Source: Candidatus Woesearchaeota archaeon
GTDB lineage: Archaea > Nanobdellota > Nanobdellia > SCGC-AAA011-G17 > JACQNH01
Assembly (NCBI GenBank): GCA_023246445.1
Contig: JAHFIJ010000002.1
Location: 1-56,122 of the forward strand
DNA length: 56,122 bases
Reading direction: 5' to 3'
This document shows, piece after piece, positions 3,045 through 56,122 of this stretch; the first letter of the stretch is position 1; each line of letters starts with the position of its first letter. A program made the translations under genes and the position numbers. The notes beneath the pieces are model-generated. The model did not search any database. It saw nothing but the letters and a program-made list of their open reading frames with translations, and had not been told where the DNA came from.

Positions 3045-5408
3045 ATGAAAAAGGGGCTTATTTTGGTAATCTTATTAATTTTAATACCAATAGCTGGAGC
3101 TTTGGAATTAGAAAGTATAAATAAAAGTGTATTTAATTTAGGGGATAATATAGAAGTTAAAGGGAATATACAAACTGCTTTTAAAGGCGGCTTTAGAATT
3201 AATTTAAATTGCGGCAATGTTGTTTCTTTGATGTTCAAAAATGTTACCTTAGGCGAGAATGCGGAATTTAATGAAGCTGTTAAATTGTATAATGGTGAAG
3301 GGGATTGCAATATAGGCGTGTCTTTAGAGACAAAAGATGGGATTATAGATTATAAAGACAGCAATAAGTTCAGGCTTTCAAGGGATATTAATTCAAGTTT
3401 CTTTAGTGAGAAGGAATTTGTTGCTAAGGGGGAGTCTTTAAGGTTTGGAGGCACTGTTAAGAAAATTTCAGGCTTGGATTTTAGCGGATTAATAACAATT
3501 ACAATAGAAGGCGCATCCAGTAAAGAGGTTTTTACAAAGGATATTAATAATGAGTGGGATTTTGATTTTGATACAGTGAACCGCCCAATTGGAGTTTATA
3601 GGGTGTCTGTAAAATATCAGGATTTATATGGAAATGGCGGGGAATTTAAAGATGTTATAGCTTTTAAGATTTCCAATAAGATCGATTTTGCTTTTGATTT
3701 AGGGAACGGAACTTATTCTCCTAGTGAAACTGTGCCTATAAAAGGAATTATAAAAAATTTTAAAGGAGATCCTGTAAGTGGGAAGGTTAAGATAATTTTT
3801 TTGGATAAAATAACAACTATGGATGTTAATGATGGAAATCTGGCTTATGATCTGAAGTTAGAAGATAATCAAGCAAGCGGGGATTATAATATAGGTTTTA
3901 AGGTAGAAGATGATTTTGGAAATTATGGGGAAAGAGGCTATTCTTTTAGTGTAAGAAAGGTTCCAAAAAGCTTATTGGTGTTTATCAGCAAGAGTGAATT
4001 TTTGCCGAAAGAAGAGGTAAATGCCCAAAGCAAGGTTTTAGATCAGACTGGAAATGAAATAACTGAAGGCAAAAGTGTTAATTTAATTATTTTTGATGCT
4101 AAGGGAAAACAAATTACTGAATGGACAAATGAGCTTAATTATGATTTAGATCAATTTGCTTTGCCTGGGAGATACACAATTGAGGGGAAATTTGAGGATT
4201 TAACCGAGAAAAGCTATTTTTCAGTTATTGGTGTTGAATCTTTAGAAGTTAATTTAGTTAATCAATCAATACTTTTTTTTAATAATGGAAATGTAGTTTA
4301 CAATAAGCAGGTTGAAATTGTTTTTAAAGGGGAAGGAGAAAATAAATTTTTTGAAATTGTAGAATTAAATCCGGGTGAAAGCAGAACGTATCCTTTAAAT
4401 GATAAGGTCAAGAGTGGGACTTATACAATTTTTGTTTTAGCTGATGGAAAAGATTATAGTTTTGATAATTTACTATTAGAAGATAAAAGATCTGTGTTAA
4501 GAAAAACAGGCAATCTGCTAACTGGCGCAGTCGGAGCTATAGGCTCATTAGGTGGGGGGGATTTAGGGGATACTTCCAAAAATATATTACTGGTAATAGT
4601 TGTATTAGCTTTAATATTCTTCTTTATTGTTAACAGGCAAAATAAATTATTGAGACAAATTGGATGGTATATAAAACATTTAGTTGAGAATTATACAGCA
4701 CAGGGCAATATGCTAAACACATTAAAAAAAGCTGTTAAGTCCAAAGGGAAAGAGAAGAAGAAGGTTATGAGTATTTTAAATAAATATCTTGATACTCATA
4801 TTGCAAGAGAATTAATACATAAAGATAAACTTGGCTTAGATTCCGAGAAGAGGGAAATAAGCGTGATGTTTACAGACATAAGAGATTTTACTACATTAGT
4901 CAGCAGCGGAGATCCATGGGTTGTTATGAATATGGTCAATTATTATTTTAAGTCTGTTACTGATATAATATATAAGTATCATGGAACGATAAATAAATAT
5001 CTGGGTGATTCTGTGATGGCTTTATTTAATGCTCCGAGAAAGGTTGAGGGGCATTTATTGATGGCATTAAAAGCGGGTGTTGAGATCTCTAAAGAATTAA
5101 ATAAATTAAACATGAAATTAAAAGAAAAGGGAATAAATGAAATATCTGTTGGGATTGGAATAAGTTCTGGTGAGGCTTTAATTGGAAGTTTTGGGGATAA
5201 ATTTATGGAGTATAGTGCTTTGGGCAATTGTGTTAATCTGGCTTCCAGAATACAGGCTTATGGAACAGGGAATCATGTGTTGATTGATGAGAAAACTTAT
5301 GAAAAAGTTAAAGATAAGGTTGATGTTGTTGAGCATGGAACTTTTGATATTCGTGGAATTGGCAGAATGAAGGTTTATAATGTAACTGATGTTAAAGGGG
5401 AATATTAA
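3045..5408 (+). CDS. Membrane-anchored receptor-type class III adenylate/guanylate cyclase
   Basis: N-terminal hydrophobic signal, then a ~500-aa beta-rich presumed extracellular region and a TM helix (ILLVIVVLALIFFFIV). The cyclase homology domain follows: ISVMFTDIRDFT, KYLGDSVMALFNAP, GIGISSGEALIGSFG, YSALGNCVNLASRIQ. Confidence 0.8.
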   Translation: MKKGLILVILLILIPIAGALELESINKSVFNLGDNIEVKGNIQTAFKGGFRINLNCGNVVSLMFKNVTLGENAEFNEAVKLYNGEGDCNIGVSLETKDGIIDYKDSNKFRLSRDINSSFFSEKEFVAKGESLRFGGTVKKISGLDFSGLITITIEGASSKEVFTKDINNEWDFDFDTVNRPIGVYRVSVKYQDLYGNGGEFKDVIAFKISNKIDFAFDLGNGTYSPSETVPIKGIIKNFKGDPVSGKVKIIFLDKITTMDVNDGNLAYDLKLEDNQASGDYNIGFKVEDDFGNYGERGYSFSVRKVPKSLLVFISKSEFLPKEEVNAQSKVLDQTGNEITEGKSVNLIIFDAKGKQITEWTNELNYDLDQFALPGRYTIEGKFEDLTEKSYFSVIGVESLEVNLVNQSILFFNNGNVVYNKQVEIVFKGEGENKFFEIVELNPGESRTYPLNDKVKSGTYTIFVLADGKDYSFDNLLLEDKRSVLRKTGNLLTGAVGAIGSLGGGDLGDTSKNILLVIVVLALIFFFIVNRQNKLLRQIGWYIKHLVENYTAQGNMLNTLKKAVKSKGKEKKKVMSILNKYLDTHIARELIHKDKLGLDSEKREISVMFTDIRDFTTLVSSGDPWVVMNMVNYYFKSVTDIIYKYHGTINKYLGDSVMALFNAPRKVEGHLLMALKAGVEISKELNKLNMKLKEKGINEISVGIGISSGEALIGSFGDKFMEYSALGNCVNLASRIQAYGTGNHVLIDEKTYEKVKDKVDVVEHGTFDIRGIGRMKVYNVTDVKGEY

Positions 5409-6100
5409 ATTCTTATTTCAATGTCTTCAAAGTAAGGAGTTAATAAATTCTTTATGTTTTTTAATTCTTCTTCTGAATAAGAGTTTTCATTTAGGTAGCT
5501 TAGATCAATTATTGAATCTGCTTTTTTAAATTGCTGCAGACAATATTTTTTAGCGCCTTTAAGCCATTCTCCAATCTCAAGAAAATCTTCTTTTGAAATT
5601 AATTTTGGTAATGAGGTAGTCCTAAATTCGTAATTAATACTACTATCCATTATAATTTTAACAGAGGCTTTGATATTTTCAATTGGAACTTTAATTATTG
5701 TAGTTTTTTCATAATTTTTTAAAGAGTTTTTAATGTCCATAGCAATATAATCTATTAAATTATTGTCTATTAACTCTTTTATCATTTCAGGATTTGTGCC
5801 GTTAGTATCTAATTTGACTAAAAATCCCAATTCTTTTATTTTTTTAATGAATGAAGGCAACCCATTGTGCAATGTGGGCTCTCCGCCAGTTATTACGACA
5901 CCATCAATTAAGCCTTTTCTTGTTTTTAAAAAAGAAAAAATCTTTTCTTCATCTAATTGTATCAGTTCAGGAGAATTAACTGCTAGCGGCTTGTTGTAAC
6001 AGTAAGGGCATCTTAAATTACAGCCTGCAGTAAATATGATTGAGGCTAATTGACCGGGAAAATCAATTAACGTCAATGGTTGAAAGCCTTTTATAATCAT
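5405..6100 (-). CDS. nrdG: Anaerobic ribonucleotide reductase activating protein (radical SAM)
   Basis: Contains CNLRCPYCYN and GVVITGGEPTL. ATG at 6100 overlaps the TGA of the upstream nrdD fragment (ATGA). The longer track ORF (to 6205) runs across that frame. Confidence 0.88.
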   Translation of the reverse strand: MIIKGFQPLTLIDFPGQLASIIFTAGCNLRCPYCYNKPLAVNSPELIQLDEEKIFSFLKTRKGLIDGVVITGGEPTLHNGLPSFIKKIKELGFLVKLDTNGTNPEMIKELIDNNLIDYIAMDIKNSLKNYEKTTIIKVPIENIKASVKIIMDSSINYEFRTTSLPKLISKEDFLEIGEWLKGAKKYCLQQFKKADSIIDLSYLNENSYSEEELKNIKNLLTPYFEDIEIRI

Positions 6101-16537: not shown

Positions 16538-17101
16538 ATGTCACAAACTGAAGGAGGTTATACCTTTTTAGAGGAGGATTCTAATTGTTTTAGTTATGTG
16601 GCGCTGGGATTGTATGCAGAATTAATAGTCTCCTTGTCGGAAGGAACACCAATTGACCTAGTATTGAAACAAATTAAAAGAGATGATCATTTTAAAGAAC
16701 GGGATATAAAATGGATTGAAATGAAATATATAAATCATTTTAATCATTGTAAACCTTGTTTTAGAAAATATGAAGGTTATGTTGGGGGTTTATGGGAAAT
16801 TGTTAGAAATTTTGAAATGCGTGTTAAAAAAGGATTAGGTGATACTGAAAAAAATAGTTTATTTTTTAGATTAAGAAAAAATTTTTTACTTGAGCATTTA
16901 GATTATGATGACCCTTGTAATTTGTTTAGATATTTAGATAATTATTTTTTTAGCAGAGCTGGGGATTTCCATCATGTTGAAGGTTTTGAGAGGCATATTA
17001 GTGAATGTGATTATTGCAGGGGGTATAAGAGTTTAGGGCATTCTGCGAATTTAGTTGATTTATCTGTTGTTTTGAGAAGAGTAATTGATAATAATGTATA
17101 A
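16538..17101 (+). CDS. Hypothetical Cys/His-rich protein
   Basis: A long ORF with HCKPCF and ECDYCRG pairs. Followed by the hairpin at 17126-17145. Confidence 0.5.
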   Translation: MSQTEGGYTFLEEDSNCFSYVALGLYAELIVSLSEGTPIDLVLKQIKRDDHFKERDIKWIEMKYINHFNHCKPCFRKYEGYVGGLWEIVRNFEMRVKKGLGDTEKNSLFFRLRKNFLLEHLDYDDPCNLFRYLDNYFFSRAGDFHHVEGFERHISECDYCRGYKSLGHSANLVDLSVVLRRVIDNNV

Positions 17102-17125
17102 GCCATAGACATATGTCGTAGGACG

Positions 17126-17145
17126 TTTATGTTGTAGAACATAAA
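17126..17145 (+). terminator. Perfect 8-bp hairpin downstream of 16538-17101
   Basis: TTTATGTT-GTAG-AACATAAA. Confidence 0.3.
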
Positions 17146-17420
17146 TGAATTTTGCTTGTAAAATCAAGCAAACAAGTGAAGATAGCAAATTTGATAAATG
17201 GTGCAGAAGAAATGGAATTAAACACATCCGTTCAGCAATTCATAGCCCAACTACTACAGGAAAGGTTGAAAGATTATTTCAGACTATGGACAGAGAAATG
17301 CCCTTTTGTAATAATGATTCCGAGTTGTTTAGAATGAGGTATAATCATTTTAGACCGCATATGAGCCTACATGAGAAAGTCCCAGCAGACATTTATTTTG
17401 CATTCGATAAACTATTTTAA
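17145..17420 (+). pseudogene. rve-type (DDE) integrase core, C-terminal remnant
   Basis: DKWCRRNGIKHIRSAIHSPTTTGKVERLFQTM...YNHFRPHMSL is the last third of an rve domain. The N-terminal two thirds are absent. Flanked by GACATATGTC palindromes at 17108-17117 and 17429-17438. Confidence 0.65.
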
Positions 17421-17450
17421 AGGGTTATGACATATGTCAGTGGATTGCAC

Positions 17451-17570
17451 AAGTAATTGATAATAATTAGTTTTAAAAAGTCTGTTTTTCAAGGTTTTAA
17501 GATGGAAAATGAGCAAATTATAGAGGTTAAGGAGTCTAAGCATAGTAAAATAGGATATATCAAGGATAAA
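17451..17570 (+). repeat. Direct repeat copy 1: orphan secE promoter plus first 23 codons
   Basis: 120 nt, 116/120 identical to 20300-20419. Encodes MENEQIIEVKESKHSKIGYIKDK and then runs into a stop. Confidence 0.9.
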
Positions 17571-17572
17571 CA

Positions 17573-17592
17573 GTATCTACTTGCGTAGATAC
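17573..17592. other. Perfect 8-bp stem / 4-nt loop hairpin at the repeat-cassette junction
   Basis: GTATCTAC-TTGC-GTAGATAC starts 3 nt after the end of repeat copy 1. Confidence 0.5.
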
Positions 17593-17704
17593 TGACATAA
17601 TGCCAGAAAGCTCGCATATTACAATAAGCTGGACAAAGCCAACTAATTCCCACGCAAAGCTCCCTAAAGAAATATTTATAAATATTCTAAAATTATCTAT
17701 TTAT

Positions 17705-18772
17705 ATGAGAAAAAAGATACAAGAAAGAGCGAAATGGGAAGGGTCTCCCTTTCCAGATTTATATGAAGATATACTTAAAACTCCACTTTGTGAAATTTTA
17801 GCAAAGGGTAGACATAGGTCTGAACTGATATTAATACACCATTTACATGAAGTCGCTCTTCCATTTATCAAATCCATGGCACAAGGTTATAAAATAAGAA
17901 AAATAATTGGTATACCTTATTCAAGCGTTGATTCAGTTGTTAAAGAACTGAAGAGCTTTTTTGATGTTATCGTTCCAAAAGAATTAGAGGAGATTTCAGG
18001 TATTGTGGAACAATCGGTTAATTTATCTAATAAGTCAGTTATAATTGAAGAAATTGGGGGGTATACTACAGATATTGCAGATTTCTTGGATAAATCTAAA
18101 AATGTAGTGGGTGTTGTCGAGGATACCCAGCAAGGCCATTGGAGATGGCAAAATACTTCACTGAATAGATTACCTGTTTTATCTGTCGCTTATTCAAGTA
18201 CAAAACGAATTGAGGATCACTTTGTTGCACAATCCATAATTGATGGCTTGGCTCGTTATTTGCATCAAAACAATCTAAAACCACTCAGAAACCAAAATAT
18301 TTTAGTCTTGGGATTTGGAAATATTGGGGAACAGTTGTGTCGATATCTTAAACCAATATGTAAGGATTTATCAGTTTATGACATAAACCCTATAAGATTA
18401 TTAAAAGCAAATGTTGATTATAATATCTCTCGTGATTTTTCCAATATAGATATTGTTCTTGGAGTTACTGGAAAACAATCAGTTACTATAGATGACGCAG
18501 ATAAATTAAATTCAAATATGTTATTAATATCGGGAAGCTCAAAAAGAATTGAGTTTGAACAAACTTTACCAGGGATTATTAATAACGGAGAACCAATTAA
18601 TCTAAGATATTCAGTTGTGCCATCGAAAGTTCTGGATTTAGTTTATGGTAGTTTAATATGTTGTATCAACAAATTAGATAATGGTTTTTCTCTTCAAGGA
18701 TTACATGATTTGGATTATCTCGAGCAACAAAAGATTGCAGAGAAATATAAAAGAATATATAATATAAGGTGA
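17705..18772 (+). CDS. Divergent S-adenosylhomocysteine-hydrolase-like NAD-binding protein
   Basis: Collinear with AdoHcyase: VIIEEIGG (cf DDGGD), VVEDTQQG (cf EETTTG), LPVLSVAYSSTKRIED (cf PAINVNDSVTKSKFD), Rossmann VLGFGNIGEQL. Several catalytic positions are substituted. ATG at 17705 follows TTTATAAAT by ~25 nt; the track ORF starts at 17600. Confidence 0.6.
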   Translation: MRKKIQERAKWEGSPFPDLYEDILKTPLCEILAKGRHRSELILIHHLHEVALPFIKSMAQGYKIRKIIGIPYSSVDSVVKELKSFFDVIVPKELEEISGIVEQSVNLSNKSVIIEEIGGYTTDIADFLDKSKNVVGVVEDTQQGHWRWQNTSLNRLPVLSVAYSSTKRIEDHFVAQSIIDGLARYLHQNNLKPLRNQNILVLGFGNIGEQLCRYLKPICKDLSVYDINPIRLLKANVDYNISRDFSNIDIVLGVTGKQSVTIDDADKLNSNMLLISGSSKRIEFEQTLPGIINNGEPINLRYSVVPSKVLDLVYGSLICCINKLDNGFSLQGLHDLDYLEQQKIAEKYKRIYNIR

Positions 18773-18779
18773 ATTTATT

Positions 18780-19241
18780 ATGGAAACAAAAAAAACAGAT
18801 CTAACCGTTGGAGCATGTATTATTTCAAATGGAAAAATTCTGCTTATGCTCCATAAAAAATTAAACAAATGGCTTTTTCCAGGTGGGCATATAGATCCAA
18901 ATGAAACCCCTGACATGGCAATAGTAAGAGAAGTAAAAGAAGAGACAGGATTAAATCTAAGATTTATGAATTTTAGTGAACTTAATCAATCGCCTGAAGA
19001 AATTGAAAAATTGGCAGTACCATTTCATGCTAACTTACATAATGTAGGAGATCATGATCATTACTGTTCTTATTATCTTGGAACTGTTGATAATCCTAAT
19101 TTTATAAAAAATCATGAAAGCAAAGATTTAAAATGGTTTAATATTGAAGAAATAAAAATGTTAGAAAACCTGCCTCCAAGTATTAAACAAATGGCAATAC
19201 TTGCTGTAGAAAAATACAACAAATTAAATGATAACTTATAG
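18780..19241 (+). CDS. Nudix hydrolase
   Basis: Nudix box GGHIDPNETPDMAIVREVKEETGL. Starts 8 nt after the upstream gene. Confidence 0.88.
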   Translation: METKKTDLTVGACIISNGKILLMLHKKLNKWLFPGGHIDPNETPDMAIVREVKEETGLNLRFMNFSELNQSPEEIEKLAVPFHANLHNVGDHDHYCSYYLGTVDNPNFIKNHESKDLKWFNIEEIKMLENLPPSIKQMAILAVEKYNKLNDNL

Positions 19242-19500
19242 GGGGCGCTTATATACTTTGCTGTCGTAGAGTTTAGTAGAAGCTTTAGGACAAACTCTTC
19301 GCCAATTTTTGCTCAACTTCATTTCGCAAAAACCGTTGCACTTTGGCTCAGGTTTTTCTTCGAAAAACGAATAGCGCAGGTTGTCCCACAAACATCTCTA
19401 AAAATTATTTTTAGCATCTTTTGGCTGCTTTTAACCCAACTTTGACACTTCCTGTCTGGGAACCTAAAATTTAGCCCTTATGGACAAATTTGTGTGGACG
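19242..19500. repeat. GC-enriched non-coding segment R2, relative of R1 (340-640)
   Basis: Blocks GTTGCACT (19335-19342), TGTCCC (19382-19387) and AATTATTTTT (19403-19412) occur in the same order and with similar spacing as in R1. Confidence 0.3.
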
Positions 19501-19561
19501 AAAACACAAATATTTTTTATTTGTTTAATATGGGAAAGTTTATTTTTAGTTCAAAAAATAT

Positions 19562-20049
19562 TTACCTCGATTCTTTTAGTATATCTGTCAGCAAATGTTT
19601 CTTTTCCTTGCCAAGATTAAGATCGATTATTTTAATTGTTTCCAGCTCATTTATCACTTTCCTTGCTGTTTGTTTTGTAAACCTCTCAATTATGCATTCT
19701 ATAAGGAAAGCCAATACACAGATAAAAACATGAGCCCTTACTCTTCTTTCCTCGTAGTGATATATGGGTCTTATATCCAGGAAGTTTTTTATTTCACAAA
19801 AAGCATTCTCTACAATTTGGAGTTCTTTGTAAGATTTCATTGCTTCTTTTGGTTCTAAGTTTGTATTTGTTACTAATAAGAACTTGCCTGCTATTTTCTT
19901 TTCATATTCATAATTCTCTTTATTTAAAGAGAATTTAAAATTATCTGCAAAGTTTAAATCAAATAGTCTTTTGTTTTTTCCAAGTAAATTATTAGCTTGT
20001 AAAATTAAAGCTTCTTTTTTTATGTTCTTTTTTTGTAGTTCATTTAATT
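19562..20049 (-). mobile_element. IS4/IS1634-like DDE transposase, C-terminal remnant
   Basis: Open frame ...KEAMKSYKELQIVENAFCEIKNFLDIRPIYHYEERRVRAHVFICVLAFL... is the conserved C-terminal block of this transposase type. Only ~160 codons remain and the catalytic N-terminal part is missing. Confidence 0.7.
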
Positions 20050-20299
20050 TCTAGTTTTTCTATTTCTTTAGTTGATAACAAGAATAATCACCTTCTTCCC
20101 AAGATGCTCTTTTGGAGCATCTATTTTTGCACCAGTACCAAATTTGGTAATAGTGTGCTCAAAATATCCTACTATATTTTTTACAGTTATTTCATTTGTT
20201 GCATGGGTTTTTATTCTTCTCATAATATATATCTAATACATATTAAGTATTAATTGATTTCTGTGTTCAAGAATATAGATTAAAAAGCTTTAAACAACT

Positions 20300-20419
20300 A
20301 AGTAATTGATAATAATTAGTTTTAAAAAGTCTGTTTTTCAAGGTTTTAAGATGGAAAATGAGCAAATTATAGAGGTTAGGGAATCTAAGCATAGTAAAAT
20401 AGGGTATATTAAGGATAAA
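20300..20419 (+). repeat. Direct repeat copy 2: functional secE promoter and 5' coding end
   Basis: 116/120 identical to 17451-17570 and continuous with intact secE. Confidence 0.9.
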
Positions 20420-20587
20420 TTGAAAAGCTTTTTAAGGGAATGTTTTAGAGTCTTACAGTTAACTAAGAAGCCAACCAAGGAAGAATTCAAAATAATTATA
20501 AAGGTTTCTTTGATAGGAATAGCGTTAATAGGCTTAATAGGGTTTTTAGTCCTATTGTTTAGCCAATTAATAAAAGGATTAATATGA
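20351..20587 (+). CDS. secE: Protein translocase subunit SecE (Sec61-gamma)
   Basis: KPTKEEF is followed by a single TM (IIIKVSLIGIALIGLIGFLVLLF). It holds the conserved position upstream of spt5-rpl11. ATG is at 20351. Confidence 0.85.
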   Translation: MENEQIIEVRESKHSKIGYIKDKLKSFLRECFRVLQLTKKPTKEEFKIIIKVSLIGIALIGLIGFLVLLFSQLIKGLI

Positions 20588-21090
20588 CAGAACAAATTGT
20601 AGAAGAAAGCCCAAAGATATATGCTTTAAGAACAACTGCAAATAGAGAGGATCAGGTATTTGATTTTATAATAGCTAATTTAGGAAAGAAAAATTTAGAG
20701 GTTTATAGCCTATTAAGACCTCATAGTTTAAGGGGGTATATATTTGTTGAGGCTAAGGATTTTGAAAATGTGGAAGAGGCTGCTTCTGGTGTTCCTTATG
20801 CAAGAGGAGTATTGCCCAGAACTGTTAATTATTCAGAGATAGAACATATGTTAGAACAGGTTAAATCTGCAGTTGCTATACAAAAGAATGATATTGTTGA
20901 GATAATATCCGGCCCATTTAAAAGAGAAAAGGCTAAGATAACAAGGATAGATACCCAAAAAGAGGAAGTTGTAGTTGAATTATTAGAATCTGCTGTTCCA
21001 ATTCCATTAACATTAAAAATAGATTCTGTGAAGGTTATAAGAAGAGAATCCGAGGAAGGAGAAAGCGAAGAGGATAAGAAAGAGGAATAA
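20584..21090 (+). CDS. spt5: Transcription elongation factor Spt5 (NusG)
   Basis: NGN domain (IYALRTTANREDQV, GYIFVEA) plus KOW (IVEIISGPFKREKAKITRID). ATGA overlap with secE. Confidence 0.9.
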   Translation: MTEQIVEESPKIYALRTTANREDQVFDFIIANLGKKNLEVYSLLRPHSLRGYIFVEAKDFENVEEAASGVPYARGVLPRTVNYSEIEHMLEQVKSAVAIQKNDIVEIISGPFKREKAKITRIDTQKEEVVVELLESAVPIPLTLKIDSVKVIRRESEEGESEEDKKEE

Positions 21091-21091
21091 A

Positions 21092-21874
21092 ATGGCAGAT
21101 GAAAAAATAGAATTTATGGTGGAAGGTGGAAAGGCTGCTGCTAATGCTCAAATTAGTCAAAAATTAGGACCGATGAAGATTAATATAGCTGAGGTTATGA
21201 AAAAGATTAATGAAAAAACTTCTGATATGAGTGGGATGCAGGTTCCTGTAAAATTACTAATTGATATTAAGACTAAAGAATATAAGATCGATATTGGAAC
21301 ACCACCTGTTGCTGAATTAATCAAAAAAGAATTAAGTTTGGAAAAAGGATCTGCAACTCCAAATACTGAAAAAAAAGGAAATTTAGGCTTTGAACAAATA
21401 ATTAAAATCGCTAAAATAAAACAAGCCTCTATGTTTACTAACAGTTTGAAATCTGCTGTTAAATCAGTTATAGGGAGCGCTGCTAGCATGGGTGTTTTGG
21501 TTGAGGGCAAGACTCCTTTAGAAATAAATCCTGAAGTTATAAATGGACAATATGATACTATGATTAAGGAAGAGAAAACTGAAATCAGTGCTGATAAAAA
21601 AGAATTATTAAATAAGCAACTGGAAGAAGTTAATAAAAGATTAAAGAAAGAGTTAGAGAGATTAAAGGCTGAAGAAGAGGCTGAGAAGGCTGCTGTTGTT
21701 GCTCCTACTGCAGAAGTCAAGGTAGAGGGTGAGGTTAAGGCTGAGGGAGAAGCTGGAAAATCTGAAGCTGGAAAGATTGCTCCAGGTGTTGAAGTCAAGG
21801 CCGGAGCTAAGCCTGAAGCTGGAAAGACTGAAGCTAAAAAACCAGAAGCCAAGCCTGAAGCAAAGAAGAAATAA
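21092..21874 (+). CDS. rpl11: Ribosomal protein uL11 with ~100-aa K/E/A-rich C-terminal tail
   Basis: GGKAAANAQISQKLGPMKINI and TPPVAELIKKE. From about residue 160 onward there is a coiled-coil-like then AEGEAGKSEAGK...KPEAKPEAKKK tail. Confidence 0.9.
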   Translation: MADEKIEFMVEGGKAAANAQISQKLGPMKINIAEVMKKINEKTSDMSGMQVPVKLLIDIKTKEYKIDIGTPPVAELIKKELSLEKGSATPNTEKKGNLGFEQIIKIAKIKQASMFTNSLKSAVKSVIGSAASMGVLVEGKTPLEINPEVINGQYDTMIKEEKTEISADKKELLNKQLEEVNKRLKKELERLKAEEEAEKAAVVAPTAEVKVEGEVKAEGEAGKSEAGKIAPGVEVKAGAKPEAGKTEAKKPEAKPEAKKK

Positions 21875-31920: not shown

Positions 31921-31967
31921 TTTATTGCACTGCATAGCTAAGGTCTTTTCCAGGCAATTTCATAATA
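31921..31967 (-). repeat. Orphan copy of endA 3' end (last 9 codons, stop, 17 nt)
   Basis: 43/47 identical to 33367-33413 and still encodes YYEIAWKRP-stop. Lies 33 nt upstream of the 31049-31888 start codon. Confidence 0.8.
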
Positions 31968-32073
31968 AAAAGCTATTTATCTCTGTAACCAAATTTTTTA
32001 TTATATGCCTGGTGATCTGCAATATCCAAGATAAAAGCGATTATTTCTATTTCTTCATTATTAGTTAAAGTTA

Positions 32074-32832
32074 TCAAGCATTTAACAAGCAATCAACTGC
32101 CGCATCCATTAATTTATTTAAGGTTTGTTTAACTTGTTTCGCATTAAATTGAGGATCCCATTTGTCTTCTCCTAGAATATCTGATACTACAAATGCAGCA
32201 GCAATTTTAACTTTTCTTAATTTGGCAACACTAAACAGAGCAGATGCTTCCATTTCCACTGTTTTCACATCTTGTTTCTTATAATGTTTAACTTCTGTTT
32301 TTGTTTCTCTATAAGGTGCGTCTATTGTCCATGTTGTCCCTTGTTGAAAATTAAGACCTTGCTTTTTTATTGATTTTTTTAATTTTTCTGTCAGATTTTT
32401 ATTTGGATATGAATATTTACTATGTGGAAAGTAATGATAGCTCGTTCCTTCATCTCTAATTGCTTTATCGCATAAGAATACTCCAAAGCCTTGTAGGCCG
32501 CCAGCAGAACCTATATTTAGAAATTCTTTTCCTCCTAATGCAATCAATTCCTCTATAACTGTTGTTGCATGTGGTGAACCTATTCCAGTCATCAAAACTA
32601 CTCCGATATCTTTATACTGATGAATTGTTATCAATCTATAATAATTTATTTTTTTTGAGTTGAACTTCTTTCTAAAATATTTTAGAATCTTTGGGTAATA
32701 AATTAAGATATACTTTGTAGGCTTTTTAACTGGGCTTTTCTTTATCTTCTTCCAGTTAACATAATCTTCTGGATTAAATAGAGCTGCTTCAGCATGTTTA
32801 TTCTTGTATTGTGGATATACCATAATAATCAA
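32074..32832 (-). CDS. Nucleoside phosphorylase (PNP/UDP-1 family)
   Basis: GIGSPHATTVIEELIALG and VEMEASALF. Confidence 0.8.
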   Translation of the reverse strand: MIIMVYPQYKNKHAEAALFNPEDYVNWKKIKKSPVKKPTKYILIYYPKILKYFRKKFNSKKINYYRLITIHQYKDIGVVLMTGIGSPHATTVIEELIALGGKEFLNIGSAGGLQGFGVFLCDKAIRDEGTSYHYFPHSKYSYPNKNLTEKLKKSIKKQGLNFQQGTTWTIDAPYRETKTEVKHYKKQDVKTVEMEASALFSVAKLRKVKIAAAFVVSDILGEDKWDPQFNAKQVKQTLNKLMDAAVDCLLNA

Positions 32833-32922
32833 TAAATAAAGTTCAAATAAAAAGCTTTCTGAACCAATAAAAAGGTGACACTTACTTTACAGCTTCTTTG
32901 GATAAAATAATACGGACTATCT

Positions 32923-33201
32923 TCATAATTCTATTCCTTCAAGAATTGCTTTTTTTAAGTTTGGATTTGTGTTGTCAATCCAAGTTATTCCCTTTAGCGT
33001 CACGGCGATTTTGTTGCTTTTTTCTAAATATCCAAGAATCAACATCAGCGTATTGTGGTTTACTTTTCTTGGTAACTTCCTTTTGAGTTCGGCTATAGAA
33101 ATGATACTATCATTCATTTTTTTTAAAGTATCTTCTACCATAATAACTGTGTTTAATGTTGCCCAATGAACTTTTTTCTCTCTGAGGTTTATTAGTGCCA
33201 T
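32923..33201 (-). CDS. Small wHTH-like protein (92 aa)
   Basis: IISIAELKRKLPRKVNHNTLMLILGYLEKSNKIAV. Size and pattern resemble small wHTH proteins of archaeal plasmids and viruses. Confidence 0.45.
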   Translation of the reverse strand: MALINLREKKVHWATLNTVIMVEDTLKKMNDSIISIAELKRKLPRKVNHNTLMLILGYLEKSNKIAVTLKGITWIDNTNPNLKKAILEGIEL

Positions 33202-33366
33202 TTTAATATCTTTTAGTTATAGGTTAATAATTATTAGATATTAATGCATATTTAAAGCTTTCTATTTATTTTACCATACGATCAATGGTAAACTGGCTTA
33301 TAAAACTAGTGCGAAATAATTTCCGGACACTACAAAGAACAAAATTGGCTCCTTTTAACTTAACAA

Positions 33367-33413
33367 TTCATTGCGCTACATAGCTATGGTCTTTTCCAGG
33401 CAATTTCATAATA
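33367..33413 (-). repeat. endA 3' end, repeat copy attached to the intact gene
   Basis: Partner of 31921-31967. Confidence 0.8.
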
Positions 33414-40776: not shown

Positions 40777-41901
40777 ATGGATCAGTTTTCTCAACAATCA
40801 CAACAAAAAACAGAAAATAAGAATGCTTACCTGAAGCAAAGCACTAATTATTCTAATCCTTTGGATGCTGAGTTAGAGCAGTTATTAGCCAAGCAAAGAG
40901 CAAAGATAAAAGTAGTTGGCTGTGGCGGAGGAGGAAATAATACAATTAACAGAATGAGCGATGTTGGGATTACAGGTGTTGAAACTATAGCTATAAATAC
41001 AGATGCTCAAGATTTGCTTTATACAAATGCCAATACTAAAATTTTGATCGGTAAAGAATTAACACAAGGTTTAGGGGCTGGTGGGATTCCAACTGTAGGG
41101 GAACAGGCTGCCAAAGAATCAGAGCATGAGATAAAGTCTAAACTGCAGGGAGCAGATATGATATTTATTACCTGTGGATTAGGTGGGGGAACAGGAACCG
41201 GCTCTGTTTCTGTAGTTGCTGATGTTGCTAAGAAATTAGGATGTTTAAGTGTTGGTGTTGTGACAATGCCATTTCAGATGGAGGGGCAGAGAAGATACGA
41301 AAATGCTGTTTGGGGTTTGGAGAAATTAGAAAATGTAGTGGATACGTTAATTGTAATACCCAATGATAAATTATTAGAATTAGCACCTGATTTGCCATTG
41401 CATACTGCTTTTAAGATCGCTGATGAAATTTTAACTAATGCTGTTAAAGGGATTGCAGAATTAGTAACAAGATCTGGTCTGGTAAATTTAGATTTTGCTG
41501 ATATAAAAACTGTAATGAGTGACGGTGGGGTTTCAATGATTGGTGTTGGAGAGGCAGATTCAGAAGACAGGGCTATTGCTGCTGTTGACAGGGCGATTAG
41601 CAATCCATTATTAGATGTTGATATCTCTGGTGCAACTGGTGCATTGGTTAATGTTTCGGGTGGGACTGATATGACCTTACAGGAAGCAAGGCAAGTAGTT
41701 GAAAGAGTATCTGAAAAATTAAGCCAGGATGCTAAAATAATATGGGGGGCACAGATTTCAGAGGATTTAGAAGGGACAATAAGAGTATTATTAATTGTTA
41801 CAGGGGTAAGTTCACCTCAAATCTTTGGTCCTAAAAGAAAAATGTCACAGAAAGAAACTGAAGAGATTGGGGGGGAATTAGGGATTGAGTTTATTAATTA
41901 A
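40777..41901 (+). CDS. ftsZ: Cell division GTPase FtsZ
   Basis: GCGGGGNNTINRM, tubulin signature GLGGGTGTGS, and NLDFADIKTVM. Confidence 0.95.
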   Translation: MDQFSQQSQQKTENKNAYLKQSTNYSNPLDAELEQLLAKQRAKIKVVGCGGGGNNTINRMSDVGITGVETIAINTDAQDLLYTNANTKILIGKELTQGLGAGGIPTVGEQAAKESEHEIKSKLQGADMIFITCGLGGGTGTGSVSVVADVAKKLGCLSVGVVTMPFQMEGQRRYENAVWGLEKLENVVDTLIVIPNDKLLELAPDLPLHTAFKIADEILTNAVKGIAELVTRSGLVNLDFADIKTVMSDGGVSMIGVGEADSEDRAIAAVDRAISNPLLDVDISGATGALVNVSGGTDMTLQEARQVVERVSEKLSQDAKIIWGAQISEDLEGTIRVLLIVTGVSSPQIFGPKRKMSQKETEEIGGELGIEFIN

Positions 41902-41902
41902 A
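41746..41902 (+). repeat. Direct repeat copy 1: 3' end of intact ftsZ
   Basis: 157 nt. Differs from 43918-44073 by 3 substitutions and one G in a G-run. Confidence 0.9.
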
Positions 41903-42361
41903 ATGAAAACAGAAGATATTGGCAAAAATAAAAGTAATGAAGAAATTGTGTGGTATCTTATTGTTTTAGACAGTGGTGCCAGCAGCGCAAATATCTCTCG
42001 GGTTGATGTTACTGAAATGATCTTGCGTGGTAGAAGGCCAAATGCAGGGGATATAGGGAGATTTGCTCCAGATTATGTTTTTAAACCATGTTTTCATTCC
42101 CCTGAACCAAAAAAGGGGATTGATTTTGAATATTGCGGTTGGTTAAAGGATATTTTAAAGTATTCTCCAAATATTCCTAAAGCGAAACATGATTGTTCTG
42201 ATCCATGTTGGCGTGCTAAAGTTACTAAACATACTTTCGCTGGACTGAAATGTAAATTTGTTTCTTTAGAGGGAAGAATTCATGCTGTTTGGAAAAAAAG
42301 AATTCCTGTTCCGATTTATGGGTCTTTAAATGAATATTTTGCTGAAAAAGATCTTTCTTGA
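41903..42361 (+). CDS. Hypothetical Cys-rich protein
   Basis: ATG begins immediately after the repeat. Cys-containing motifs are CFH, YCGW, HDCSDPCW and LKCK. GC-richer than neighbours. Confidence 0.5.
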   Translation: MKTEDIGKNKSNEEIVWYLIVLDSGASSANISRVDVTEMILRGRRPNAGDIGRFAPDYVFKPCFHSPEPKKGIDFEYCGWLKDILKYSPNIPKAKHDCSDPCWRAKVTKHTFAGLKCKFVSLEGRIHAVWKKRIPVPIYGSLNEYFAEKDLS

Positions 42362-42470
42362 GCTTTTTGATCTATATTTCCAAATAACGAAATATTTATT
42401 TTAGTGATAACAATTGGTATGTTGTAAGAAAGATAAAACCCCTGAATAAATAACTTTTCTTATTATTTGT

Positions 42471-42510
42471 TTTTTTAGTATACCATTTTTAGTAAATAAA
42501 TATTTATATA
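42471..42510 (+). repeat. 40-nt repeat copy A (TTTTTTAGTATA-N4-TTTTAGTAAATAAATATTTATATA)
   Basis: 36/40 identical to 46045-46084. Overlaps the 3' end of the ATPase gene. Confidence 0.7.
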
Positions 42511-43802
42511 CTAATTTCTTCAATAAGGAATTTCCATAATGGGATAAATTTTATTCCCTCTTCTTTTTTTTCTATATTTTTTGTAAGCAGTATAAGTTCC
42601 CTTGTTTTCTTGAATGCTGCCTTAAAATCGTATAAAGATTTTATTTCTCGTTCCGGAATTTTATCAGTATAAGTCACATTTATTGCAGTCAGGGAGTGAT
42701 CGTGATTTTTTATAATGAAATCAACTTCTGTTTCTTTTTTGGACTTCCAATAATAAGCTTCAGCGCCCCTTCTTTTTAAATCAATGAACACCTGGTTTTC
42801 AGCAAGTTTGCCTTCATCACCAGAGAATTTAAAGGAGACTGCGTTTCTTAAACCATTGTCTATGCAATATACTTTTGAAGCTCGGCTTTTCTGTTCCTTC
42901 ATAGAATAAGCGAAGTGGTCTATAGTAAATAAAAGAAATGCTTCATTAGTATAGGATAAATAATCTTTTATGGCTTCGTAAGATAAACCTAAGCTATTTC
43001 TAACATTTCTTAAAGAAACGAATCCCGTTATGTTTGTCATTAGATATTTTATAAATTCGCTTGTTTTCTTGCTGTTAAGATTATGTCTATCTATGATATC
43101 TTTGAAGAGGATATCGTTGAAGTATTGATCTAACAGTTTTGTTTTGAAGTCTTTTTCTTGAAAGAAAACTTTAGGGAACCCGCCCTGTAATAAATATTCA
43201 TTAAGAGATTTTAGTATGAGGTATTTTTCTTTTTCGAGAAATATCCCCTTAACTGCTTTTGAAAAATCAAGATTAATCCCATTAAAAATCAAGAACTCTT
43301 TAAAACTAAGAGGATACACTTCAAAAGTAAGATTCCTCCCAGTCAGTAGTGTTGCATATTCTTTTTTTAGGAGATAAGAACAAGAGCCAGATACAACGAA
43401 CTTACAGTTGGTCTTCAAATCATAATGTCTTCTTATCCATGCTTCCCATTTGTCTTTTTTGTGAATTTCATCAAAGAATATATAGGCTTTCTTAGCAGGA
43501 TTTAGGTTTGATCTGTATGTTTGGTAAATGTCTTCAAGACTGTCTTCTGTAAAACGAGTATCTTCAAGATTGACGAAAAGAATTTGTTCTGGTTCTACTT
43601 CTTTTTTTAGCAAACGTTCTATCATTTGATACATAAATGTGCTTTTTCCAGATCTTCTTACCCCCAGAATAATAGTTATCTCTTCTATATCTACTGATTT
43701 AACAAGAAGGGAATAATTCAAACGAGGCTTTCCTTTTAGTTCATCAGGCACTTGTTTTGTCGACCACCAAGGGTTTGCTTCTGCGAGTTTTTGTATTTCC
43801 AT
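42504..43802 (-). CDS. AAA+ ATPase with DUF4143-like C-terminal domain (COG1373 type)
   Basis: Walker A GVRRSGKST, Walker B IFFDEIH, and a C-terminal region typical of this ATPase family. Confidence 0.85.
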   Translation of the reverse strand: MEIQKLAEANPWWSTKQVPDELKGKPRLNYSLLVKSVDIEEITIILGVRRSGKSTFMYQMIERLLKKEVEPEQILFVNLEDTRFTEDSLEDIYQTYRSNLNPAKKAYIFFDEIHKKDKWEAWIRRHYDLKTNCKFVVSGSCSYLLKKEYATLLTGRNLTFEVYPLSFKEFLIFNGINLDFSKAVKGIFLEKEKYLILKSLNEYLLQGGFPKVFFQEKDFKTKLLDQYFNDILFKDIIDRHNLNSKKTSEFIKYLMTNITGFVSLRNVRNSLGLSYEAIKDYLSYTNEAFLLFTIDHFAYSMKEQKSRASKVYCIDNGLRNAVSFKFSGDEGKLAENQVFIDLKRRGAEAYYWKSKKETEVDFIIKNHDHSLTAINVTYTDKIPEREIKSLYDFKAAFKKTRELILLTKNIEKKEEGIKFIPLWKFLIEEISI

Positions 43803-43849
43803 TTTATGTCCGAAATGCTTATATTATCGTTGTAAATCGACTATATAAA

Positions 43850-43902
43850 TGTTACGGTGTAGCATAGCATTTAGGCTATTTTTGTTACGGTGTAGCATAG
43901 CA
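43850..43902. repeat. Two perfect 20-nt direct repeats TGTTACGGTGTAGCATAGCA, 33-nt period
   Basis: Located at 43850-43869 and 43883-43902, 48-100 nt upstream of the ATPase ATG (43802), just beyond a TATA-like CTATATAAA. Confidence 0.8.
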
Positions 43903-43917
43903 ATATTCTCTCTAATA

Positions 43918-44073
43918 GGGGCACAGATTTCAGAGGATTTAGAAGGGACAATAAGAGTATTATTAATTGTTACAGGAGTTAATTCACCTCAAATCTTTGG
44001 TCCTAAAAGAAAAATGTCACAGAAAGAAACTGAAGAGATTGGGGGGAATTAGGGATTGAGTTTATTAATTAAA
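43918..44073 (+). pseudogene. Orphan ftsZ 3' fragment (direct repeat copy 2), frameshifted
   Basis: Encodes GAQISEDLEGTIRVLLIVTGVNSPQIFGPKRKMSQKETEEIGG and then loses frame (G6 versus G7). Confidence 0.9.
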
Positions 44074-46877: not shown

Positions 46878-47009
46878 ATTTCTTTGGTTAATACTGTATT
46901 TTGTATATAATTCAAGGTATAATACAAGATATGGGATTGTGGTATATATTATAAAATCAAAATATTTTTAAAGGATAATTGTCTTTGAATAATGTTAAAA
47001 GAGGTAAAA

Positions 47010-47531
47010 ATGAAAATAAATTGTCCGCATTGCACGAAAGAAATTGAGTTCTTAGTTAAGAGCAATATAATTAATCAGCCTAATGTTAATGGACATGCAA
47101 ATGTTAGCCAATCACAAGGAGATATTAATCAATCCCCATCGACACCAGTAAGTCAAACACCCATAATTTCAAGAGGGGCGCCGATACAGAGTCATGGAGC
47201 TGTGTATTATAGGGATAATAATACTGGTCAAGTGTTTGTGCAACAGGCTCAATCAGGATTAGGAAATGCACAACAAGCTCAAAACTTGCAACAAGAAAGA
47301 CAAATAACCCAGTCACAATTAGATGTAAGTAGCAATGGTGTTAGTAAGACTGTTCAGGAGAATGCCAAAACTAATGTTGTTAATAATCCTAGTGCTGTGG
47401 ATAATGAGCAAATAAGAGGCGTTGCTTTTGGGGCACCTAAGCCACCTTTAAATACGGCCAATGAACAAAAACATAAAGAGGCTGAAAATATATTAAGCAG
47501 ATTAGCTAATTCTGATGGGATGAAAAGATAA
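47010..47531 (+). CDS. Hypothetical: N-terminal zinc-ribbon half, Q/N/S-rich low-complexity body
   Basis: MKINCPHCTKEIEF is followed by Gln/Asn-rich sequence. GAGGT lies upstream of the ATG at 47010. Confidence 0.5.
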   Translation: MKINCPHCTKEIEFLVKSNIINQPNVNGHANVSQSQGDINQSPSTPVSQTPIISRGAPIQSHGAVYYRDNNTGQVFVQQAQSGLGNAQQAQNLQQERQITQSQLDVSSNGVSKTVQENAKTNVVNNPSAVDNEQIRGVAFGAPKPPLNTANEQKHKEAENILSRLANSDGMKR

Positions 47532-47578
47532 ACTATTAGATAAGGTTTTTAAATACAATTCTTATGAATTCTTAAGAT

Positions 47579-47728
47579 AGCCCCGTCGTCTAGCGGCCAA
47601 GGATAGAGCCCTTTGAAGGCTTTGACGGAAGTTCGAAATAGCTTTTCTTTTGAGTAAAGCTTGAAGAGTCCTTGTGTGGACTTTAAGAAAAAAATTAGGA
47701 AAAGAAAGCGAAAGTCTTCCCGGGGCTA
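47579..47728 (+). tRNA. tRNA-Gln(UUG) with ~77-nt T-loop intron
   Basis: Acceptor AGCCCCG/CGGGGCT (A1:U72), anticodon arm GAGCC-CTTTGAA-GGCTT, and T stem GGAAG/CTTCC (47716-47720). The T-loop TTCGAA is interrupted at about 47638-47715. Confidence 0.85.
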
Positions 47729-47762
47729 TATATTTATATAATTAAAAATAATCTATAGCTTT

Positions 47763-48548
47763 ATGTTTTGGATTAAAAGAGAGAAAAAAAGAGGGCAGGC
47801 TTCATACTTTGTTTTAGCAGGGATTATTGTCTTTATGGTTTTAGCAGTATTGGTTTTTATTTTTTCTACTGAGCAAGTTAAATCAAAAGTAAAGTTTGAG
47901 AATTTAGAACTGCCCATTAAAATTGAAGATGTTGAAAGAACTATTGATTCTTGCTTAAAAAAATTAACTGAAACGGCTATAAATTCTATAGCTTTTAATG
48001 GTGGTTTTATTGATATAAGAAATTCTCCTATTGAACCATTAGGATTTTATTTTCCCGGAACGAAAAGTAAAGCTAAAGTTGCTTATGGGTTATTTAATGA
48101 TAATATAGTTTTAATAAGCGAAGAAGGGTTTAAATATCAATTAAAAGAATACTTGAGATATGAAGTTCCTCTTTGTTCTTTTCCTAATGGATTTAAATCA
48201 AATGTTAAACAGAGCGATATTAATGTAGATGTAAAAATATCCCCGGGTTTTGTTGATATTGAAATGAATTATCCCCTTGTTTTGAAAGTTGGAGATCTAA
48301 ATGCAAAAACAAAGGAAACGTATAAACTTAAATTAAAGTCTAATATTGGTGAAATGCGTAATGTTGCAGAGGAAATTGTTAAACAGCAGAAAAAGTATAA
48401 TGGACAAATTGAAATTTCGAATATACTATCTTTCGGATATGATATAAAAGTTATTCCTATAGACAAGAATACTTCGGTGATTATGATTTATGATAAGGGG
48501 TCTACTGGTTTGATATTTATGTTTGGGAGCAAGAACAAAAATGAATAA
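47763..48548 (+). CDS. Type IV pilin-like (class III signal peptide) protein
   Basis: The N-terminus KKRGQASYFVLAGIIVFMVLAVLVFIF fits the archaeal prepilin signal (basic, G, small residue, hydrophobic helix). Confidence 0.6.
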   Translation: MFWIKREKKRGQASYFVLAGIIVFMVLAVLVFIFSTEQVKSKVKFENLELPIKIEDVERTIDSCLKKLTETAINSIAFNGGFIDIRNSPIEPLGFYFPGTKSKAKVAYGLFNDNIVLISEEGFKYQLKEYLRYEVPLCSFPNGFKSNVKQSDINVDVKISPGFVDIEMNYPLVLKVGDLNAKTKETYKLKLKSNIGEMRNVAEEIVKQQKKYNGQIEISNILSFGYDIKVIPIDKNTSVIMIYDKGSTGLIFMFGSKNKNE

Positions 48549-55440: not shown

Positions 55441-56122
55441 CTATTTTTCTTGTGGCAATTGCTTTTGTTTCTTCTTTTGCGTCAAATACATGTAATTTTC
55501 TTTTGAAACGATAGACTTGCCTATTTTTTCCTCTAATTCTTTTCTTGTGTTTTTCGCAATAGTCCCGCCTTCTACTGCTGATTCTTTGCACTCTTCAAAT
55601 CCTTCAGAGTCTTTTGATACTGTTATGTCTGTAGTAGCTTTCTCCCCAACCATTGTAAGGATTAGTTCCCAGTCAGTCATGTGATCTCTTAGATTCTGGT
55701 TCTTTTTCTTTAAGCCCTTAAATTCCTTATACTCCTGAACTGTTTTGTTAAAAGTAGCTTTTGATATCTCATTTGTAAGGATGGCAAATCCTCCTGCACT
55801 TTAATTCCCCTGCCTTTCCATTCATCTGTTAAATCCTGCCTTATTGCGATGCCTCTTAATCGCTTGTCAATCCATTCTTTAGGATAACCTTTTAGCTCGT
55901 AATATTCCTTTACCCTATCCTGAGCGAGTTCCGGGTTCTCGATCTCTTGGATTCGTTCATAGCCCACTTTAGCTAACCACTGCTTAAATGGCTCTGCCTT
56001 TGGAGATGGAATTGATTGTATAAGCCTGAATGCATTTTTTGTTGTTACGCAGTCGGCATACCTCATTTTGCCATCTTTTGCCTGCAATTTCAAACCGTGA
56101 CAAATTGTCACGAGTTGCAGTT
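55441..56122 (-). pseudogene. Bro-N / DNA-damage-inducible DinD-like gene, frameshifted, 5' end outside window
   Basis: HGLKLQAKDGKMRYADC...IQSIPSPKAEPFKQWLAKVGYERIQEIENPELA...RQDLTDEWKGRGIK. The frame then switches near 55795-55805 to ...AILTNEISKATFNKTVQEYKEFKGLKKKNQNLRDHMTDWELILTMVGEKATT... Confidence 0.7.

Follow-up and report, generated by a model that had tools for sequence, protein, structure and literature searches.

A two-gene cassette bracketed by duplicated host sequence at the secE boundary of a Woesearchaeota-type archaeon

How can foreign genes settle directly against an essential gene without damaging it? This question is raised by the translocon gene secE in a 56,122-nt stretch of DNA from Candidatus Woesearchaeota archaeon (assembly GCA_023246445.1, contig JAHFIJ010000002.1, positions 1 to 56,122), which we refer to in its entirety as the window. 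At the 5′ end of secE, two near-identical copies of a host segment bracket an insert that carries an adenosylhomocysteinase-like gene (cargo gene 1) and a Nudix hydrolase gene (cargo gene 2); we call this arrangement cassette 1. The window belongs to a Woesearchaeota-type DPANN archaeon whose best relative is JACQNH010000070 (L003; 84% Spt5 identity). The gene order in L003 is SRP54, a homolog of the open reading frame (ORF) ORF187, secE, spt5, L11, and L37ae, and the ORF187 homolog is separated from secE by ~52 nt. Because this junction is uninterrupted, window positions 17095–20299 (~3.2 kb) represent an insertion relative to L003, the one relative on which the empty-site comparison rests. 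Thus, a ~3.2-kb block has been inserted at the ORF187/secE boundary compared with the closest available relative. An earlier sequence-only reading of the locus had described an insert between direct repeats, and the contiguous ORF187–secE junction of L003 is the uninterrupted site that such a description calls for.

The 119-nt repeats are two copies of host sequence spanning the ORF187/secE boundary (Table 1). We reproduced the 116/120 identity reported between 17451–17570 and 20300–20419; the duplication is real, but the homologous block is 119 nt long rather than 120 and begins with AGTAATTG (17452/20301). The opening 18 nt of this block come from the end of ORF187 (VIDNN*; five codons plus the stop), and the 16-mer AGTAATTGATAATAAT is present three times in the window (17080, 17452, and 20301). 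Relative to secE, the left limit of the repeat lies ~14 nt before the TATA box, and the right limit lies where the conserved SecE domain begins, at the transition from the variable N-terminal tail of the protein to its conserved LKSFLRECFRVL region. With both copies present, ORF187 retains its 3′ end and secE retains its promoter and 5′ end. As the sequence-only reading had it, the left copy encodes MENEQIIEVKESKHSKIGYIKDK followed by a stop, with five foreign codons (QYLLA) in between, and the right copy is continuous with intact secE, spt5, and rpl11. The resulting 28-codon secE′ stub is most likely non-functional.

Which of the two promoter copies is native bears on a further proposal of that reading, namely that secE is now driven by a promoter delivered with the insert. 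The secE promoter has its TATA element at −31 to −29, with agTTTTAAAAAg at −31 in both copies; the same motif occurs at the Dph and ProRS genes. In the upstream regions of ~40 window genes, most have a TATA-like element whose first base lies 27–31 nt ahead of the start codon, which points to predominantly leaderless transcription in the host. All four differences between the repeat copies (17530, 17534, 17555, and 17561) fall among the final 43 nt, in secE codons 10–20, and the promoter halves are identical (0 of 77 nt differ). The origin of each copy is therefore unreadable from the sequence, and delivery of the promoter by the insert is not established. It is possible under a Campbell-type crossover located downstream of the promoter, the only setting in which it would be true, and it would be false if the duplication arose in situ, either by capture at a staggered break or as an IS1634 target duplication. 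The spare left promoter and the secE′ stub are directed into the insert, through a hairpin and towards the cargo, which also has a TATA box of its own. This hairpin had been noticed previously, although its stem is 10 bp instead of 8 and it adjoins the left copy directly instead of lying 3 nt away; no T-run follows it on the plus strand. The insert itself measures 2,729 nt, the previously given 2.85 kb corresponding to the copy-to-copy spacing of 2,849 nt.

The content of the insert agrees with the earlier description: an adenosylhomocysteinase-like gene, a Nudix gene, a GC-richer non-coding block, and a truncated transposase of the IS1634 family. The original insert was a small cassette of the adenosylhomocysteinase-like and Nudix genes with their own promoter, and the IS1634-family remnant, a DUF2080 scrap, and a miniature insertion sequence (IS) of the IS481 family (mini-IS481) are later arrivals. 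Single-sequence Pfam hits of cargo gene 1 fell below threshold, whereas its family profile matched adenosylhomocysteinases in the PDB with E = 3e-23. The real start of this gene is most likely M36 at 17705, as its homologs are 355–390 aa long and cover 91% of the 390-aa ORF. Values of dN/dS between copies are 0.16–0.18 for cargo gene 1 and 0.07 for cargo gene 2, indicating functional genes under purifying selection; at the corresponding dS of ~0.8–1.2, the non-coding ends of the copies would no longer align. The GC-richer block (19242–19436) gave no Rfam family, no homolog, and no significant fold (z = −0.9 and −0.7). Base composition weakly marks the cargo as foreign, with a GC skew of 0.08–0.17 versus 0.33–0.49 in plus-strand host genes, which themselves vary.

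The two cargo genes travel together elsewhere. They are adjacent, with the Nudix gene following cargo gene 1, in L094 and L096–L099, and are fused in the homolog P0101. In L096–L098, the pair lies inside a cluster with genes for dCMP deaminase, nucleotide kinase, ThyX, DHFR, and thymidine kinase. The dCMP deaminase–ThyX–DHFR–thymidine kinase neighborhood points to nucleoside or nucleotide metabolism and suggests, from gene context, a role for the pair in nucleotide salvage or nucleotide modification. As an observation on the cluster itself, it forms a pyrimidine/thymidylate module (L096 4507–9929; also in L097 and L098) that includes a 450-aa ThyX-like protein. Searching the cargo against PHROGs returned generic Nudix matches only, and the repeat plus cargo had no match in IMG/VR or the JGI metagenomes.

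The most informative second occurrence is L094, a Logan contig from an unrelated run, which matches window positions 17676–19234 (79% nucleotide identity across 1,565 nt), a stretch that includes the two genes as well as the cargo promoter. Here the module has a GC-rich HIT-family gene on one side and archaeal rpl3 on the other. Around it is a 21-nt direct repeat without mismatch (21/21; TTGCGTTTTAAAGCTTTTTAT, 341–361/2058–2078) that corresponds to the TATA region of a divergent, bidirectional intergenic spacer. The insert is 1,696 nt long with 31% GC, compared with ~55% GC in the flanks, and is devoid of any IS or recombinase. The length of sequence upstream of the cargo ATG is similar in the window and L094 (134 versus 138 nt), and the linkers of the two inserts have no homologs in the donor operons or in each other.

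Cargo gene 1 also reaches beyond the archaea. Window positions 17704–18765 match L083 8000–9061 (and likewise L084–L090 and L095), with 81% DNA identity over 1,062 nt and 78% protein identity to the gene on the bacterial contig. The presence of ruvB, gyrA, ftsH, ribosomal protein S1, valS, and tsaE on the contigs bearing cargo gene 1 identifies these as bacterial, and an 812-kb contig among them is consistent with, though not proof of, a bacterium of the candidate phyla radiation (CPR). For cargo gene 1, dS is 0.78 to the bacterial copy versus 0.90 to the archaeal copy in L094. The 81% DNA identity suggests a fairly recent transfer of this gene between archaea and bacteria, probably between DPANN and CPR lineages.

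Two further cassettes of the same design lie in the window. The repeat of cassette 2 is 157 nt long with three clustered substitutions and one G indel; it duplicates the ftsZ 3′ end to the base after the stop, a base inside the last codons of a convergent periplasmic-binding-protein gene. Its cargo consists of the orphan ORF152, for which a homolog search returned nothing beyond two orphans, and an AAA_14/DUF4143 ATPase (PADLOC candidate PDC-S01, E = 4e-106). Cassette 3 has a 47-nt repeat (43/47 identical) made up of the last nine codons of the tRNA-splicing endonuclease gene endA, the stop, and 17 nt downstream, with 29 of 30 coding positions identical and 14 of 17 beyond the stop. It carries ORF92, a small helical protein resembling a winged helix-turn-helix, and a PNP_UDP_1 nucleoside phosphorylase. 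Direct repeats identical or near-identical to the target thus flank all four inserts, namely cassettes 1–3 and that of L094. Repeat pairs of this design number 3–4 in 56 kb of the window, versus none comparable in ~1.09 Mb of related loci.

Other long repeats in the related loci were considered as gene-end duplications and rejected, being low-complexity coding sequence in L031, a repetitive surface protein in L043, and a non-coding element in L021. The latter, in a related Woesearchaeote, is a 99-nt repeat with 96% identity (9607–9704/13695–13793) around a 4-kb segment downstream of rpl11; it adjoins a GC-rich palindromic element and resembles a miniature inverted-repeat transposable element (MITE) or a small RNA. 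Similarly, the 15-mer TTGGCTSCTTTTAAC (19421 and 33345) was examined as a shared cassette end and is taken to be a chance match, given p ~0.045 before correction for 21 comparisons. A fourth repeat pair in the window (42471–42520/46045–46094; 40–50 nt, 86–92% identical) contains T-runs and a TATA-like motif. One copy is located within cassette 2, downstream of the ATPase gene, and the other is flanked by trmB and a gene for a RIO-type kinase. This pair could represent a small MITE, the boundary of a nested cassette, or a terminator/promoter element common to both sites. Also in cassette 2, two 20-nt iterons (TGTTACGGTGTAGCATAGCA) are present at ~43853–43900, directly before the right repeat copy.

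Mini-IS481 retains only the C-terminal 91 transposase codons (rve_3; NF033577, IS481 family, E = 5.9e-16), and its inverted termini, transposase remnant, and 15-bp target duplication mark it as a miniature element of this family, in which target duplications are 4–15 bp (ISfinder). Owing to its insertion after AATAAT, the end of ORF187 now reads ...VIDNNV*. Its 15-bp duplication starts at the same nucleotide as the 119-nt repeat. Within the insert, a 92-aa ORF matches positions 377–470 of the 483 in NF033559 (E = 2.5e-20); ~165 C-terminal codons of this IS1634-family transposase are left, and the N-terminal two thirds are deleted. The 14-mer CAACTTTGACACTT at 19437–19450, the transposase-distal repeat, is identical to both inverted termini of a full-length relative in L092. 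Comparison with L092 revealed no second IS1634 end at 20299. An 11-mer common to the right insert end and the L092 subterminal region was tried as this second end and discarded as not significant (p = 0.51), leaving the end unlocated. The DUF2080 gene is probably a scrap of this IS1634-family element or of another IS.

The closest relatives of the IS1634 fragment are short ORFs of 170–200 aa, found standing alone for this C-terminal part in several genomes; among the relatives, only L092 yielded a full element. One such relative, a 171-aa ORF with 66% identity to the window fragment, is found in another Woesearchaeote (L091 4270–6516), where it adjoins an AAA_14/DUF4143 ATPase 36% identical to that of cassette 2. 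The surrounding island includes Bro-N, nucleotidyltransferase pairs, a TnpB-like gene, and tandem repeats at 5662–5956.

For these four repeat-flanked inserts, we tentatively favor att-like, Campbell-type integration of circular cassettes mobilized in trans. The repeats would be attL/attR-like junctions, formed when a circular cassette carrying a copy of the target segment recombines once with the chromosome. Since the cassette is without a recombinase, catalysis is proposed to act in trans; its source would be an integrase gene located elsewhere, or else an archaeal integrase or the recombination machinery of the host using ~100 nt of identity. The same process would account for cassettes 2 and 3 and the L094 insertion, and which copy of the secE promoter is native would depend on the crossover point. 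The limits of the repeats track functional limits (a promoter edge, the start of a conserved domain, a stop codon, and the decay of identity after a stop), as expected of an element-borne copy that must restore its target. Of the eight coding differences that separate the intact from the truncated copies, six fall at third codon positions (binomial p = 0.02), six are synonymous, and the differences are clustered (p = 0.015 and p = 0.002); in their third-position bias and clustering, they resemble differences between functional alleles. The recurrence of the module with the same promoter in L094 indicates that the cassette is mobile. Archaeal att sites measure 8–243 bp, a range that includes all four repeat lengths (21–157 nt), and integration into the 3′ ends of protein genes, integration into AT-rich intergenic sites, and loss of the integrase are all documented.

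Several observations weigh against Campbell-type integration. No match to an integrase, recombinase, or complete transposase was found among window ORFs of at least 90 aa or in the four cassettes. At 1,696 nt, the L094 insert has no room for a decayed integrase, so trans-mobilization must be assumed, and we know of no documented case of this kind in archaea. The window and L094 repeats share no att core other than the TATA-like GTTTTAAA. No conserved cassette ends are demonstrable, although dS of ~0.9–1.2 would erase non-coding similarity in any event, and IMG/VR and the JGI metagenomes yielded no free form, either circular or viral. The substitution statistics rest on 8 sites. Finally, a Campbell-type model does not account for the left edge of the repeat falling exactly at the mini-IS481 duplication.

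This coincidence is accommodated by a competing explanation, which we consider somewhat unlikely, in which a foreign fragment was captured by end joining at a widely staggered break and fill-in duplicated the target. In one variant, nicks 119 nt apart on opposite strands opened the site, one of them made by the IS481 transposase at the right end of mini-IS481 (17451|17452); alternatively, a one-ended break was extended by copying the sister chromosome. Neither variant calls for a dedicated mobile element. Only this model accounts for the nucleotide-exact match between mini-IS481 and the left edge of the repeat. Neither a recombinase, inverted ends, nor conserved cassette ends would be needed, and none is seen; duplications of variable length (21, 47, 119, and 157 nt) would arise naturally; and the right end of the insert passes through IS debris without a recognizable IS terminus at 20299, as for a random fragment. 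However, staggered-break capture predicts neither the third-position bias of the differences nor, except via selection, repeat limits at stop codons and promoter edges. It also needs two independent captures of the same gene pair with similar upstream lengths (134 versus 138 nt), cassettes 2 and 3 have no IS at their edges, and we found no precedent in the literature for such long fill-in duplications in archaea. The remnant in the insert raises a different option, that the 119-nt repeat is a long target-site duplication of an IS1634-family element, with the cargo carried along or inserted later. IS1634 and IS1549 make variable duplications of 8–514 bp, and the family is common in archaea (PMC2266710); its long, variable repeats would fit the four lengths observed. 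Nevertheless, the IS terminus at 19437 is 1,866 nt away from the left copy, which places the cargo beyond the IS; position 20299 shows no detectable IS end, and the insert ends are neither inverted repeats nor similar to IS ends. IS1634 sequence is also absent from cassettes 2 and 3 and from the L094 insertion. We regard this origin, weakened by the position of the IS end, as quite improbable.

It is very improbable that the structure is an assembly artefact, with strain variants or a repeat-induced misjoin placed in series. The window is of metagenome origin, and long repeat pairs are unusually frequent in this contig, as might be expected of an artefact. In addition, the ENA assembly breaks inside mini-IS481 and the DUF2080 region, and neither ENA nor Logan provides an independent contig spanning both repeat copies. 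Even so, each junction is contained in contigs from two other assemblers. In ENA ERZ27297570, where contig extents are inferred from gene coordinates and hence approximate, a 2,880-bp contig (~17311–20190) holds the left junction and a 21,850-bp contig (~20056–41905) holds the right, the pair overlapping by ~135 nt in the DUF2080 region; the larger contig includes all of cassette 3. Logan contig L001 (SRR14366766) equals window positions 17500–19508 at 100% identity and physically joins the four left-copy-specific bases to the insert. It begins exactly k−1 = 30 nt before the first of these bases, L002 ends exactly 30 nt (k−1) into mini-IS481, and L093 ends k−1 = 30 nt from the repeat boundary of cassette 2, which is how a de Bruijn graph behaves if both copies occur in the reads. 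The 15-bp mini-IS481 duplication ties the left copy to the ORF187 flank, and secE would be missing from a genome that carried the truncated left copy alone. The linkage of the two copies thus rests on the window assembly, the tie to ORF187, and the essentiality of secE. Both the ENA and Logan assemblies appear to derive from the same population as the window. Separately, the end of the 21,850-bp ENA contig at ~41905 coincides with the repeat/insert boundary of cassette 2, which could reflect presence/absence polymorphism. The remaining probability we assign to mechanisms outside Campbell-type integration, staggered-break capture, IS1634 duplication, and artefact.

Integration in trans at att-like sites, the explanation we favor, can be compared with known systems, as repeat-flanked integrated elements are already well known. 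As in archaeal tyrosine-recombinase elements, direct repeats of host sequence flank the insert, the target end is restored, and an empty site exists in a relative; the repeat lengths lie within 8–243 bp, and insertion is at conserved-gene ends or AT-rich intergenic promoters. Unlike archaeal integrated elements, the four cassettes and the window have no integrase, the inserts are two-gene units of 1.4–2.7 kb, and two relatives of the same cassette have no common att core. Targeting an essential protein gene at its promoter and 5′ end, as here, is rare in archaea. An integrase from Thermococcus nautili, that of pTN3, recombines any two identical segments as short as 104 bp in a manner resembling homologous recombination, and such activity on ~100-bp identities could insert, in trans, circles that contain host segments of 119 or 157 nt; however, no such integrase was found here, and the 21- and 47-nt repeats are below the reported minimum. 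Bacterial cis-mobilizable elements (CIMEs) keep their att sites and have lost genes for integration and transfer (PMC5704250). The cassettes are like CIMEs in having attL/attR-like repeats while lacking genes for integration and transfer; they could descend from complete elements, although this is unlikely for the 1,696-nt insert of L094. SXT/R391 at the prfC 5′ end offers another parallel, in that a housekeeping gene is kept functional by a duplicated or replaced 5′ part, and the element reportedly supplies a new promoter. SXT/R391 elements are bacterial, 79–110 kb in size, and equipped with their own integrase, att sites on a 17-bp scale, and conjugation genes, in contrast to the 2.7 kb and 119-nt repeat of cassette 1. 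With IS1634 and IS1549, the locus shares direct repeats that vary in length over tens to hundreds of bp and a family remnant in the insert, but the repeats do not abut IS termini, the cargo is outside the IS, and the other cassettes are without an IS.

Table 1. Coordinates of cassette 1, its surroundings, and the two other cassettes of the window.
Feature	Position	Strand	Details
ORF187, lineage-specific upstream neighbor	16538–17101	+	homolog directly upstream of secE in L003
mini-IS481 target duplication, left copy	17080–17094	+	15 bp, AGTAATTGATAATAA, native ORF187 3′ sequence
mini-IS481, 357 bp	17095–17451	+	TGT...ACA termini, 26-nt imperfect inverted ends
Left repeat copy	17452–17570	+	last 5 codons and stop of ORF187, secE promoter, secE codons 1–23
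Truncated secE′ stub, 28 codons	17502–17588	+	called as a 28-aa gene in a Logan contig
Insert between copies	17571–20299		2,729 nt
Hairpin	17571–17594		10-bp perfect stem, 4-nt loop, −20 kcal/mol; abuts left copy
Non-coding linker and hairpin	17571–17704		ends in TATA box
Cargo gene 1, divergent adenosylhomocysteinase-like NAD(P)-binding enzyme	17705–18772	+	own TATA box at −30
Cargo gene 2, Nudix hydrolase	18780–19241	+	PDC-S07, 1.4e-14
GC-richer non-coding block	19242–19436
IS1634-family remnant	19437–20059	−	NF033559; terminal repeat at 19437–19450
DUF2080 transposase-associated small gene	20068–20223	−	family match
Right repeat copy	20301–20419	+	runs on into intact secE
Intact secE, 78 aa	20351–20587	+	Pfam SecE on residues 25–77
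spt5	20584–21090		after secE
rpl11	21092–21874		after spt5
Cassette 3	31921–33413	−	repeats 31921–31967/33367–33413 at endA 3′ end
Cassette 2	41746–44073	+	repeats 41746–41902/43918–44073 around insert

Additional features of the window lie apart from the cassettes. Positions 46992–51153 hold three consecutive ORFs (179, 261, and 876 aa) without a Pfam match. At the contig end, an ORF with a Bro-N domain is encoded on the minus strand (55710–56111). Bro-N domains are common in viruses and mobile elements, and another mobile region may begin here. The protein encoded at 3045–5408 (787 aa) has Ig-like/MG2 domains and, at its C-terminus, an adenylate/guanylate cyclase domain, an uncommon combination in a DPANN genome.

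What is unusual about cassette 1 is the targeting of an essential translocon gene at its promoter and 5′ end, the length of the repeat, and its membership in a set of four independent cassettes without a recombinase. Also unusual are the presence of three cassettes in 56 kb of a DPANN genome, the same cassette before rpl3 in another archaeon, and the near-recent bacterial link of the cargo. A broader proposal, which we consider unlikely at present, is that DPANN archaea have a recombinase-less means of installing small promoter-bearing cassettes at the boundaries of essential genes (secE, rpl3, ftsZ, and endA), with 20–160 nt duplicated. If true, this would be a new insertion process, either trans-acting and sequence-independent or repair-mediated. 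Duplication of the target would let both neighbors survive in a genome almost without intergenic space, and genes could pass between CPR bacteria and DPANN archaea by this route.

Members of the DPANN and the CPR rely on scavenged nucleotides, and their genomes are tiny and densely packed; how these organisms acquire genes is poorly understood. In the window, three accessory cassettes lie against essential genes without damage, and two of them encode nucleoside or nucleotide enzymes; the module of cassette 1 recurs in a second archaeon, and part of this module is present in a bacterium too. If insertion is trans-acting or repair-based, streamlined genomes would be able to gain foreign genes without mobile-element machinery of their own.

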